A stretch of 64,000 nucleotides of DNA, taken from Leucoraja erinacea (lineage: Eukaryota). Shown here in pieces: positions 14,912 through 58,616 of this stretch (the stretch's first letter is position 1; each line of letters opens with the position of its first letter). The notes beneath the pieces are model-generated. The model was not told the origin of the DNA, ran no database searches, and saw only the letters and a program-made list of their open reading frames with translations. Position numbers and translations under genes: made by a program. The stretch covers positions 43,028,001-43,092,000 of the forward strand of contig NC_073391.1 of NCBI RefSeq assembly GCF_028641065.1, read 5' to 3'.

Positions 14912-16256
14912 CGACACACTGAGGGAGTCCTTGTTGGTGAAGCTCGGCCAGCTTCAGTGCCACTTCACGTGGGGCCCACAGATGGACATCGTCGACCTGG
15001 ACGACGTGAAGCAGAGGTTGCAGGATTCGATTATCATCGGCGGGAAGCACCAAGGCGTGCCGCACAACCAGCTGGCTTACATCAACTACCTGCAGGGCAA
15101 CTACGAAGAAGCTCTCCGTGACTTAGAGGAGGCGGAGAGACGTCTGAGGGAGATCCACGGGGATGGATTTGAGAGGAGGAGCATCGTCACCCATGGCAAC
15201 CGGGCCTGGTTGCATTACCACATGGGGCAACTCAGCGAGGCCCAGTCCTACCTCGACAAGCTGGAGGTGATGTGTGGCCCCCTCACACAGGGCCCGCACG
15301 TCACGGCAATGGTGCCCGAGGTGTTGGGGGAGAAGGGGTGGTCTTTGCTGAGCTCCCGCTCTCGGTGCTACGAGGAGGCGAAGGAATGTTTCGCCAGGGC
15401 TCTGGAGGAAGATCCCGACAACACGGAGTGGAACATGGGCTACGCCACCGCTCTGTACCGTCTGGAATCGATTTCCGGAATCGCAGAAAACCCCGAAGTG
15501 AGTCAGTCGGTGAAACAGCTGAGACGGGTGCTGGAGCTCGATCCGGGTGAATCTGTGGCCAGGGTGATGCTGGCCCTCAGGCTCCAAGAGTTCCAGCAAA
15601 AGGCAGAAGCGAATGAATTGGTTGAAGAAGCGTTGCGGACAAGCCCAGATTCTCCATATGTGCTCCGCTATGCAGCAAAGTTTTACAGAACAGAGCGCAA
15701 TGTTGATAAAGCGATAGAGATGTTGAAGAAAGCCTTAGAATTCACTCCGCTCTCTTCCTTCTTGCACCATCAAATGGGTATCTGTTACAGGGAAAAGCTA
15801 ATGGCTCTGCGTAAAAATCAAGGCATTGGAGACCCAGGTGTGGAGGCTGAGTTGATCAGCCATTGCAAGCACCATTTTGGAACGGCATTTCAACTGAAGC
15901 CATCGTTTATTCTTGCACAGCTGGATTTTGCCGGGATCTGCTTAATGAATGGTGAATCAGACAGGGCGATGAAGATATACAACGACCTCCAGAGTTTAGA
16001 GGATGTCACTCCAGATAAAAAGCAGGCAATAGAGTTACAGCTTGGATTATATGAAATGTATCACACCAAGTCTGAATCAAACGCCATCCACCATTTTATG
16101 GAAGGCCTTAAAATCCAGCACGGCACGAAATATTGGAAAACTTGTTGCACCAAGTTGGAGCAGATTGCAAGAAGGTAAATTAACAGGAACCCGGACAACA
16201 GCAGAGCCTGGGGAATCCTGGAGTTTATTCACCGAGAAGCCGGGAAAAATTCTGAA
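14912..16256 (+). pseudogene. IFIT5-like: IFIT copy A exon 2, premature stop at 16176-16178 (423-aa product) and 3' deletion; probable pseudogene
   Basis: Acceptor ctctcttgcag|c at 14911/14912. IFIT motifs LQCHFTW, GEKGWSLL, YVLRYAAKFYR, FLHHQMG. TAA where the paralogs have CAA (gaaggTAAat vs gaaggCAAat). Homology jumps at ~16256 from ...tctgaa to 3'-flank sequence (tttccaaagcc), removing ~420 bp including the last ~30 codons. Confidence 0.8.
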
Positions 16257-16359
16257 ATTTCCAAAGCCTCCACATCCTTACAGCAATGGACACCCTGAAC
16301 TACATGTGATACTCCAAATTAACTCCAAATAACCAAAGTCCGATAAAGATGCATCATGA

Positions 16360-17240
16360 CTCCCTGACTGATACAAAAGTTAGTGGTTTTGCAGATAGTG
16401 AAGATGGTTGTGAAAGATTGCAGCAGGATCTGGATCGATTGGCCAGGTGGGCGGAGGAATGGTTGATGGAATTTAATAGAGAGAAGTGTGAGGTGTTGCA
16501 TTTTGGGATGTCGAACAAGGGCAGGACCTACACTGTAAATGTTAGGCCTCTGGGTAGTGTTGTAGAGCAGAGGGATCTCAGAGTACAGGTGCATGGTTCC
16601 TTGAAGGTCGAGTCACAGGTAGATAAGGTGGTCAAAAAGGCTTTTGGCACTTTGGCCTTCATCAGTCAGTGTATTGAGTAAAGTTGGGAGGTCATGTTGC
16701 AGTTATATAAGACGTTGGTGAGACCGCATTTAGAATATTGTGTTCAGGTCTGGGCACCAAGTTACAGGAAAGATATTGGTAAGCTTGAAAGGGTTCAGAA
16801 AAGATTCACGAGGATGTTGCCAGGACTAGAGGGTGTGAGCTATAGGGAGAGGTTGATTAGGCTGGGTCTCTACTCCATGGAGCGCAGGAGGATGAGAAGT
16901 GATCTTATAGAGGTATACAAAATCATGCAAGGAATAGATCGGGTAGATGCACAGAGTCTCTTCCCCAGAGTTGGGGAAATGAGGAGCAGAGGACACAAGA
17001 TTTAATAACAATCTGAGGGCTAACTTTTTCACACAAAGGGTGGTGGGTGTATGGAACAAGCTGCCAGAGGAGGTAATTGAGGCTGGCACTATCCCATCGT
17101 TTAAGAAGCAGTTAGACAGATACATGGATAGGACAGGTTTGGAGGGATATGGACCAAGGGCAGGCAAGTGGGACCAGTGTAGCTGGAACATTGTTAGCCG
17201 ATATTGAGTTGGGCCGAAGGACCTGTTCCCAAACTGTATG
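16360..17240 (+). mobile_element. CR1/HER1-like LINE 3' fragment in the 3' flank of A (also 37790-38610 in C and 52210-52860; absent from B and D)
   Basis: DTKVSG...LQQDLDRL...[29 protein letters not shown]. Confidence 0.85.
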
Positions 17241-55315: not shown

Positions 55316-57181
55316 TTAGTACGTTCTCCCCGCGACAGCGTGGGTTTTCTCCGGGTGCACTGGTCTCCTCCCACACTCTAAAGACTTACAGGTTTGTAGG
55401 TTAATTGGCTTAGTATAAATGTAAATAGTCCCCAGTGTGTGTAAATACCGTTAGTGTGCGGGGATTGCTAGTCGGCTCGGACTCGGTGGGCCGAAGGACC
55501 TGTTTCTGCTCTGTATCGCTAAACTAAACTAAAAATATTGACCAGAAAAAGGTGCCCAAATGGTCATAAAGCATTAAACGGAAATTAAACTAACATATTG
55601 CATATGTTGGAACTCTTAAATGCGGGAGTGTATCCTGCAAACCAAATCAAATGGCACCTCATCTATGATGCTTCTTACACAACAATTAGTTCTCACCCCA
55701 TCATTTATAGTTTTGCACTCTGTATTTTACACTTTGTGTAGAAAGATGGTGTCGAACCCAGGCGATTATTTGCGTGCTAACCACAGAAGCAGATCTACAA
55801 TCACATATTACAATCTCTAGTCCTGCAGCAACATTTCTTACACTGTGGACGCCTCGATTGTAATCATGTATTGTCTTTCCGCTGACTGGTTAGCACGCAA
55901 CAAAAGCTTTTCAATGCACCTTGGTACACGTGACAATAAACTAAACTGAACTAATCTCCCCTTTGCTCTATCTATTGTACTTGAGTTTAACGTCTGTACT
56001 TATGTACAGTATTCTCTGATCCGTTTGGATAGGAAGCAAAACAAAGCTTTTCAGTGTATCTTAGTACACGTGGCAACAATAAACTTAATCCTTATCCTTT
56101 TACCCCAGAATTTAGTGGACAAACAATTAACGTCCAGGTGAATTTGTGACCATTGAGTAACGGGCTGGGAAATCACTGCTGGTGCCTCTATTCTGACCAT
56201 CGCATCGGACGCACGTGAAATGGCGTCACATCCTCCACAACGCAGCTCTGATCCACCTCTGGTTGAATGTGAAGGTTTGTTGAGAGATGGGATCACTGTA
56301 GATCAGTCAGAGAAACGGGCACCAAACCTGCAGAAGATCATCAACAAAATGTCAATTCAAGTGTCTCCATTAAGGCACCGCACACAAGCTTGGTCAGACT
56401 CTGTAATAATCATGGCATCCAACTCCACAACGCCCTGAAAGTGGCCGCACAAGTAGATCGAGTGGTGAAGAAGGCGTACGGTAAGATGAGGAAGGAAAGT
56501 GCAGATGCTGGTTTACACCGAGGATGGACACAAAAGTCTGGGGTGACTCAGCGGGTCAGGCAGCATCTCTGGAGAGAAGGAATAGGTGACGTTTGGGGTC
56601 TGAAGAAGGGTCTTGGTCCTGAAATGTCACCTATTCCTTTTCTCCAGAGATGCTGCCTGACCCGCTGAATTACTCCAGTTTTTTGTGTCTGTCACCGTAT
56701 ACTATGCTTGCCTTCATAGGTCCATGTATTGAGTATGTCATAGAGTCACGATGCAGCTTTATTGGACTTTGGTAATTTGGAGATCATTTGGAGTATCACA
56801 TGTAGTTCAGGGCGTCCCATTGCTGTAAGGATGTGGAGGCTTTGGAAAGGGTGCAGAGGAAGTTCCTGGACTAGAGGGTATTAGCTACAGGAGATGTGCG
56901 GGGCATGTTTTTTTTACACAGAGGGCTGTGTGCGCCCGGAACTTGCTGCCGTGAGTGGTGGTTGAGGCACGATTGTGGCATTTGACAGACTTTTGGATTG
57001 GCCGATGGGTATACAGGGAATGGTGGCAGATAGGATTTGGTCTTGGCATCGTGTTCTGCACAGACACGGTGGGCCGAAGGGCCTGTTCCTGCGCTGTACT
57101 GTGTTACGTTCTATGTTCTAGTGAGGAATGGTTGAGGAAGGACCTTTCTCGCCCTTACCTCCTGGTCCTGGTATCTCCAGC

Positions 57182-58616
57182 CTAAGTAGAAGGGCGCAAT
57201 TCACGAAGAGCGCTGAGATATTCTTTGTTGCCACGATCCCACCGCAAGGCCTTTTCATAGCATTCAACAGCTTCAGAATTCTCCCCGGCTTCTCGGTGAA
57301 GAAACCCCAGGATACCCCAGGCTCTGCTGTTGTACGGGTTCCTGTTAATTTGCCTTCTTGCAATCTGCTCCAACTTAGTGTAACAAATTTTCCCTTGTTT
57401 CGTGCCGCGCCGGATTTTAAGGCCTTCCATAAAATGGTGGATGGCGTTTGATTCAGATTTGGTGTGATTCAGTTCATATAATCCAAGCTGTAACTCTATT
57501 GCCTGCTTTTTATCTGGAGTAACATCCTCTAAACTCTGAAGGTCGTTGAATATCTCCACCGCCCTGTCTGATTCATCATTCATTAAGCAGATGCTGGCAA
57601 AATCCAGCTTTGCAAATACATACGATGGCTCCAGTTCAAATGCCGTTCCAAAATGCTGCTTGCAATGCCTGATCAACTCAGCCTCCACGCTTGGGTCTGC
57701 AATGCCTTGATTTCTACGCAGAGCCATTAGCTTTTCTCTGTAACACATGCCCATTTGATGGTGCAAGAAGGAAGAGCGCGGAGTGAATTCTAAGGCTTTC
57801 TTCAACATCTCTATCGCTTTATCAACATTGCGCTCTGTTCTGTAAAACTTTGCTGCATAGCGGAGCACATATGGAGAATCTGGGCTTGTCCGCAACGCTT
57901 CTTCAACCAATTCATTCGCTTCTGCCTTTTGCTGGAACTCTTGGAGCCTGAGGGCCAGCATCACCCTGGCCACAGATTCACCCGGATCGAGCTCCAGCAC
58001 CCGTCTCAGCTGTTTCACCGACTGACTCACTTCGGGGTTTTCCGGGATCGCGGAAAATAATTCCAGACGGTACAGAGCGGTGGCGTAGCCCATGTTCCAC
58101 TCCGTGTTGTCGGGATCTTCCTCCAGAGCCTTGGCGAAACATTCCTTCGCCTCCTCGTAGCACTGAGAGCGGGAGCTCAGCAAAGACCACCCCTTCTCCC
58201 CCAACACCTCGGGCACCATTGCCGTGACGTGCGGGCCCTGTGTGAGGGGGCCACACATCACCTCCAGCTTGTCGAGGTAGGACTGGGCCTCGCTGAGTTG
58301 CCCCATGTGGTAATGCAACCAGGCCCGGTTGCCATGGGTGACGATGCTCCTCCTCTCAAATCCATCCCCGTGGATCTCCCTCAGACGTCTCTCCGCCTCC
58401 TCTAAGTCACGGAGAGCTTCTTCGTAGTTGCCCTGCAGGTAGTTGATGTAAGCCAGCTGGTTGTGCGGCACGCCTTGGTGATTCCCGCCGATGATAATCG
58501 AATCCTGCAACCTCTGCTTCACATCGTCCAGGTCACTGTCGTCCATCTGTGGGCCCCACGTGAAGTGGCACTGAAGCTGGCCGAGCTTCACCAACAAGGA
58601 CTCCCTCAGTGTGTCG
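57182..58616 (-). CDS. IFIT5-like: IFIT copy D exon 2; 479-aa IFIT protein after splicing
   Basis: Acceptor AG at 58618-58617 on the minus strand; intact ORF with the IFIT motifs. Confidence 0.93.

Follow-up and report, generated by a model that had tools for sequence, protein, structure and literature searches.

The 64,000 nucleotides of Leucoraja erinacea analysed here (the window; G000:C15:43028001-43092000, contig NC_073391.1 of assembly GCF_028641065.1) hold half of a cluster of eight close IFIT copies, which we regard, with a probability of about 0.72, as a patchwork built by repeated gene conversion between neighbours together with diversifying selection at predicted RNA-contact positions. 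Such conversion would keep the front part of the protein similar within the species, while old variants of the back part would persist across species, and the resulting step in divergence would lie at the pivot helices, as in mammalian IFIT1/IFIT1B. Four copies of exon 2, A to D, lie in the window at the places given by the initial annotation, which had described them as a repertoire of four genes. A genome search found four further close copies, E to H (loci L031-L036), just beyond it, all on the minus strand at G000:C15:43101763-43147027 and within about 65 kb downstream. The eight copies are 94-97% identical, and six of them (B, C, D, E, G and H) are intact. Copy F is broken by a two-base insertion near codon 80, and copy A, so that the count of four genes also fails within the window, in three ways: by a premature stop at codon 424, by a deletion that takes away the final 29 codons together with the beginning of the 3' region, and by the lack of the motif resembling an interferon-stimulated response element (ISRE) that the other copies have. 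Copy A is likely a pseudogene.

Exon 2 of A to D contains 26 informative sites, of which six group A with C and B with D (AC/BD), 17 group A with B and C with D (AB/CD) and three group A with D and B with C (AD/BC), and all six AC/BD sites lie 5' of all 17 AB/CD sites. The motifs from which the initial annotation had read this flip are present, and the flip falls where it had been placed, at codons 293-302, which align with residues 292-301 of IFIT5, in the pivot helices, and with residues 294-303 of human IFIT1. In MaxChi permutation the switch has p=5e-5 by site and p=1e-4 by codon. Approximately unbiased (AU) tests favour (AC,BD) for codons 187-292 and (AB,CD) for codons 303-447, with both alternatives rejected (p<0.003), in agreement with the predicted succession of topologies around a breakpoint near codon 295. 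The two N-terminal haplotypes proposed earlier did not emerge from this analysis. Codons 3-186 have no informative sites among A to D and no topology resolved by AU, the closest pair there is C and D (0.9%, tied with D and E), and the AC/BD signal is confined to two short patches at codons 188-191 and 291-292. The first aligns with the lid loop of tetratricopeptide repeat (TPR) 4, where codon 188 corresponds to IFIT5 D189 and codon 191 to human IFIT1 L193; the B/D state of the second is found in copy G too.

An internal tract of 0.7-1 kb in which D is like C has one of its ends at the switch. The AB/CD grouping had been thought to continue into the 3' untranslated region; A is deleted there, and sites shared only by B and D resume from D 56785 (B 27737) onward, after a non-coding site shared only by C and D at B 27514. 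A tract with two ends is better explained by gene conversion than by a single unequal crossover; of the two mechanisms offered originally for recombination between paralogs near codon 295, which itself is supported, gene conversion is to be preferred. B and D are sister copies, with a shared inverted block of 6.3 kb at about 98% identity. Over codons 293-447 the closest pair is C and D (3.7%), followed by A-B and B-G (both 4.9%), with the other pairs at 6.0-10.8%. With E to H as reference, R303 and Q322 occur only in C and D and T412 only in A and B, and the remaining AB/CD sites are common to one or more of E to H. The back part of B is nearest to protein P0121 of Amblyraja (thorny skate), at 7.1% amino acid difference, and no Amblyraja protein is closer than 14% to C or D. 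In the simplest history A and B would have kept an older back type and a new one would have arisen in C, from which one conversion may have copied the 3' tract into D, a neighbour in the same orientation 18 kb away. A single conversion from C to D would make all four pairings appear in the quartet A to D.

Exchange is likely to have reached well beyond this quartet. Among the 71 informative sites of the eight copies, about one pair in two is incompatible (mean 0.53), and compatibility between neighbours exceeds that between shuffled sites (p=2e-4 to 8e-4, or p=1e-4 to 1e-3 for 61 sites, one per codon). Codons 293-447 have 39 informative sites with a mean incompatibility of 0.51 (compatibility p=0.019 with k=3, 0.39 with k=5). 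The Hudson-Kaplan minimum is 28 intervals along the exon, a figure biased upwards by recurrent mutation. A switch with p<0.05, uncorrected across quartets that are not independent, was found in 21 of the 70 quartets, with a best interval that overlaps codons 290-311 in 10 and lies elsewhere in 11. We do not claim a breakpoint hotspot from these quartets, which share sequences and in which informative sites are densest at those codons. Copies A and C agree at 26 consecutive sites of the 195 that are polymorphic (p=5e-4, uncorrected, best of 28 pairs), and divergence among the eight copies has a change point at codon 282 for all differences (p=0.001) and at codon 291 for synonymous differences (p=0.017).

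The units of the patchwork can be followed in a patch table of the eight copies and 13 Amblyraja proteins, in which motifs at codons 28-29, 164-165, 188-194, 262-266, 296-308, 329-338 and 404-412 recur in shifting combinations. Copy G, for example, joins the A/C patch at 188-189 to the B/D patch at 291-292 and a mixed back part, and runs of several shared changes, silent ones included, are found at codons 334-338, 291-292 and 311. Three Logan-derived proteins have the C-type pairing end to end and all three share six of the eight residues private to C, while of the 33 differences that separate them from C, 20 involve residues present in other copies. These differences fit ongoing micro-conversion among alleles, and chimeric short-read contigs or a related species could produce them equally well. 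In the aligned residues the database proteins P0007, P0009 and P0125-P0129 match seven of the copies exactly, and we did not treat them as independent sequences.

Several features suggest that selection has acted on the exchanged variation. In the six intact copies nonsynonymous divergence (pN) over codons 293-447 is 7.7%, compared with about 2% in adjacent non-coding DNA. When 27 RNA-site residues of IFIT5, taken from the tables and passages of PMC9677429, were mapped by eye through the IFIT5 alignment, 16 of these positions were variable among the eight copies, against 98 of 477 overall (p=6e-6). Of the 27, 17 vary among 11 Amblyraja proteins (p=8e-4) and 11 among four Rhinoraja proteins (p=0.004). 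Shifting the map by 1-7 codons gave 5-12 variable positions. The enrichment lies on both sides of the switch (10 of 18 positions before it, 6 of 9 after), which argues against the clean division into an RNA pocket and a TPR half that had been drawn. The loop at codons 188-194 is among the most variable places, codon 191 being G, A, T or R. The basic core is invariant in all eight copies, at the equivalents of IFIT5 R186, R253, Y254, K257, R260, H287, Q288 and R294. Interferon induction, binding of RNA 5' ends and differing specificity are putative properties of the copies.

Comparison with other species was made at the protein level. Four of the 15 Amblyraja proteins (P0014, P0015, P0136 and P0016; truncated or partial) were left out of the trees, the Fst-like statistic and the enrichment, as were P0012 and P0135 of Rhinoraja. 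Against the 11 remaining Amblyraja proteins the Fst-like value is 0.19 for codons 47-292 and 0.02 for codons 293-447, monophyly of the eight copies is not rejected for the front part (AU 0.36) and is rejected for the back part (AU 0.00016), and the two species share polymorphism for the same residues at 67 columns. This is consistent with a front part homogenised within the species and back variants older than it. In the sawfish pair P0017/P0030 the difference per 50-residue bin is 4-16% as far as codon 252 and 28-54% beyond it, a step that appears mammal-like. A universal boundary at the pivot was considered and set aside, being seen neither in 14 stingray proteins nor in 14 more distant IFIT loci of this genome.

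Those more distant loci form a group of their own, with at least 14 intact IFIT exons (L009-L022; G000:C904, C1710, C1545, C239, C1179, C421, C207 and C15:9.49-9.51 Mb). Pairs among them are 17-19% apart overall yet almost identical over nt 150-450; L015 and L018 have one difference in each of two 150-nt bins (two in 300 nt) and 14-46 in each of the other eight. Such pairs may be read as further and stronger evidence of gene conversion, with the boundary at another place. Haplotigs may be present among these loci, since L015 and L016 differ by 0.3%.

A number of observations weigh against the patchwork as we read it. When neighbouring sites of A to D are merged into 13 patches, the switch has a p of only 0.042, and only two of the 17 AB/CD sites are silent or near-silent third-position changes, so that parallel selection may contribute. 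If only the six intact copies are used, the compatibility test gives a weak result over the whole exon (p=0.007 and 0.07), and there is no compatibility signal over codons 3-292 (p=0.46 and 0.83). Within the tract, C and D differ at 17 of 465 bases, several of these differences being shared with other copies, and the conversion would therefore be old or overwritten; its direction, from C to D, is one that we infer from the sequences. The species signal of the front part rests on few columns (55, 66 and 272), the split used for front and back was taken from the A to D data while a split near codon 147 scores equally high, and copy E groups with Amblyraja P0124 in both halves. The 14 stingray proteins have a species signal only in codons 3-150, and homogenisation of the more distant IFITs ends near nt 450. 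The pooled pN/pS (nonsynonymous to synonymous) ratio of 1.34 for the six intact copies is a pairwise count with few synonymous changes rather than a codon-model test. Contacts of IFIT5 with the 5'-triphosphate include T37, Q41, K150, Y250 and R253 in the passages cited (PMC9677429). R253 is kept in the skate copies and Y250 is Y or F, and the set as a whole is not present: all eight copies have Ser or Ile in place of K150, T37 is replaced by R or K and Q41 by S. With K150 so replaced, the ligand may differ from that of IFIT5, and 5'-triphosphate specificity cannot be assumed for the skate proteins.

The initial annotation had in effect proposed a dedicated two-by-two system, in which two N-terminal and two C-terminal modules recombine at the pivot and each of the four resulting products is retained. 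The sharpness of the switch at codons 293-302, its alignment with the pivot and the mammalian breakpoint, and the 10 quartets that break at codons 290-311 would suit such a system, which we nevertheless consider very unlikely: one of its four products is the broken copy A, it has no N-terminal haplotypes over codons 3-186, copies E to H fit neither class (G being mixed), the other 11 significant quartets break elsewhere, patch boundaries are many across the eight copies, and one conversion suffices for the quartet. It is also improbable that no exchange took place and that the look of recombination comes from parallel substitutions which strong selection has driven at a few sites. Variation at the aligned RNA-binding positions, the 15 of 17 AB/CD sites that change an amino acid and an incompatibility that is high everywhere are in line with that explanation; the shared runs with silent changes, the greater than chance compatibility of neighbouring codons, the non-coding site shared by C and D, and the near-identical stretches in paralogs as far apart as L015 and L018 are not.

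Mixing of reads from near-identical paralogs during assembly or polishing could in principle have made chimeric copies. The high identity of the copies would invite it, a 100-N assembly gap lies inside the intron of copy E (78538-78637 in window-extended coordinates), the two-base insertion of F could be an error, and no independent support was found for the D pairing. Several 5' letters private to B are absent from contigs of runs X1 and X3, though such contigs (short, with paralogs collapsed over 25900-27800) drop variants. Among the pieces listed from the four runs compared with this stretch (X1, X3, X14 and X22, out of 24), none spans it, and X22, the one run of raw reads, gave 0 reads. 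An artefact is nonetheless very unlikely for the pattern as a whole, given that the window contains no N, that mixing would have made D identical to C in the tract instead of different at 17 bases, that the C pairing runs end to end in the three Logan-derived proteins, and that the B pairing (LFSAIPE with QLKPSFILAQ) occurs in Amblyraja P0005, from another assembly. To a single unequal crossover or hybrid duplication, in which the front part of one copy became joined to a second copy's back part, we give the least credence. It agrees with the one dominant switch point in A to D, but D is B-like again downstream, the B/D block extends to both sides of the tract, and two exchange points 0.7-1 kb apart would be needed. 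A double crossover is indistinguishable from conversion in one genome.

Repeated conversion between neighbours, the reading we prefer, has a close precedent in mammals. The sections of Daugherty et al. (2016) drawn on here describe recurrent conversion between IFIT1 and IFIT1B that homogenises the 5' two-thirds of the gene and has its breakpoint in the pivot, with a 3' part that begins at base 907 of human IFIT1 (codon 303) and for which no breakpoint is reported in those sections; a cat pair, 97% identical in front and 63% in the back, gives evidence that the C-terminus sets specificity (PMC4887208). As in that account, conversion in the skate would act between tandem IFIT paralogs with a boundary at the pivot (IFIT1 294-303), codons 293-302 falling by alignment between the tabled pivot residues H287, Q288, L291 and R307. 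The front part may likewise be more alike within the species and the back part keep an older identity, a pattern seen against Amblyraja, at the protein level, on few columns and with E as an exception, and not in the 14 stingray proteins. In contrast to the two long-diverged genes described for mammals, the skate has eight young copies (about 97% identical in front and about 92% in the back), its 3' part is itself exchanged and patchy, as the tract in D and the incompatibility of codons 293-447 indicate, and short front patches are shuffled too. Mammalian IFIT1 is reported to be under positive selection at residue 193 of the TPR4 lid (PMC12543323, passages cited), with which the aligned codon 191 and its highly variable loop can be compared, although that work compares orthologs across species and includes antiviral assays, whereas the skate data compare, by alignment, the paralogs of a single genome. 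Lineage-specific IFIT expansions in jawed vertebrates, including eight IFIT genes in the elephant shark, were described by Liu et al. (2013); the skate cluster resembles them as a species-specific tandem duplication, and the main text of that paper contains none of the words conversion, recombination and positive selection, nor are skates mentioned in the passages cited (PMC3688568).

Among the papers listed in a literature search, made largely outside the subscription journals and on main texts, none describes gene conversion in skate IFITs. The initial suggestion that the system is undescribed therefore holds for the lineage only, given the published mammalian conversion with a pivot breakpoint (PMC4887208, as far as the sections cited go). 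The process is a known one, germline gene conversion with likely selection and a published IFIT precedent, rather than a novel mode of immune diversification. Novelty lies in the lineage, in a pivot boundary that may have recurred, and in the patchwork at RNA-site positions, which extends across species. A wider and more tentative interpretation, which we think possible at best, takes its model from the major histocompatibility complex (MHC). MHC class I is an immune multigene family with patchwork diversification by micro-conversion, and the skate copies may be alike in that short old patches at ligand-contact sites, shared across species, are reassorted. Trans-species RNA-contact patches would be reassorted continually among paralogs and alleles, with the main boundary fixed independently by selection at the same pivot hinge as in mammals, to give a repertoire of RNA 5'-end specificities. 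Unlike MHC class I, IFIT is a cytosolic RNA-binding effector, and the skate evidence comes from paralogs, not alleles.

IFIT genes have two exons, of which the first codes for only ATG plus two bases, and this first exon (ATG AG, followed by GT) is present in all eight copies (Table 1 for A to D). An ISRE-like motif, by motif match only, lies at most 400 nt upstream in seven of them; in A, likeness to the other copies begins at about 8541, just short of their element. An ISRE near the transcription start is described for IFIT genes (PMC3950709, passages cited). The copy B protein matches human IFIT5 over residues 5-476 (phmmer E=1.2e-98; best solved-structure match, PDB 3zgq and related entries) and IFIT1 over nearly its full length (E=3.8e-94), with Pfam TPR hits in an array of about 480 aa. 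Its nearest named relatives are skate proteins, and 'IFIT5-like' is here a database label that should not be taken to imply orthology. A single-exon gene of the sterol-hydroxylase family PF04116 (CH25H-like) lies at G000:C15:43018510-43018914, about 18 kb upstream of exon 1 of copy A, and CH25H is a neighbour of the mammalian IFIT genes; a PANK-family gene is on the same contig, about 43 Mb distant.

Some further features of the window were noted. Amblyraja P0015 ends in the aberrant peptide SKASTSLQQ, the same that copy A reads after its deletion (16250-16290), and the deletion may be older than the separation of the two skates, or may have arisen more than once at a single site. In intron 1 of B and D, directly behind the first exon, are long G/A-rich low-complexity tracts (20997-21620 and 61930-62950), which could possibly form G-quadruplexes or recombination-prone DNA. 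Fragments of a very high-copy repeat resembling a short interspersed nuclear element occupy 27421-27500 and 27659-27695, in the 3' region common to the copies, with a summed contig depth of up to 868,000 in run X1. At 46336-46806 (-), 19666-20100 (+), 2317-3354 (-) and 22987-23772 (+) are fragments which we take to resemble Tc1/mariner transposase, Gypsy-type pol and reverse transcriptases of long interspersed nuclear elements.

Table 1. IFIT features in the window (positions counted from its first letter).
Feature	Position	Strand	Remarks
Copy A, exon 1 coding part	8647..8651	+	ATG AG, then GT donor
Copy A, exon 2, broken	14912..16257	+	Premature TAA at 16176-16178 (codon 424), then deletion of ~420 bp
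ISRE-like element upstream of copy B exon 1	20810..20825	+	Motif match only, to the generally known consensus
Copy B, exon 1 coding part	20940..20944	+	ATG AG, GT donor
Block around B	23914..30335	+	Inverted duplicate of 54216-60610 around D, 97.5-98% identity
Copy B, exon 2, intact	25907..27341	+	479 aa IFIT including exon 1
AC/BD patch 1, codons 188-191	26464..26473	+	Aligned to TPR4 lid loop
AC/BD patch 2, codons 291 (silent) and 292	26774..26777	+	Codon 292 aligned to IFIT5 L291
Switch interval, codons 293-302	26778..26808	+	B coordinates, between 26777 and 26809
Copy C, exon 2, intact	39045..40479	-	Likely donor of the 3' tract of D
Copy C, exon 1 coding part	50575..50579	-	ISRE-like element near 50694
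C-like tract in D, widest extent	56786..57745	-	Narrowest 57714..57009; codons ~303-479 and part of the 3' region
Copy D, exon 2, intact	57182..58616	-	B-like through codon 292, then C-like
Copy D, exon 1 coding part	63522..63526	-	ISRE-like element near 63641

If the patchwork is as we read it, the skate cluster would be an independent cartilaginous-fish counterpart of the pivot-bounded conversion of mammals, and the boundary would then seem to have a structural or selective cause. Copies B, C and D are natural near-isogenic swaps: B differs from D mainly behind the pivot, whereas the differences between C and D are mostly those of the lid loop and of a few residues in the back part. As such they are suited to testing which residues set the RNA 5'-end specificity of IFIT proteins.

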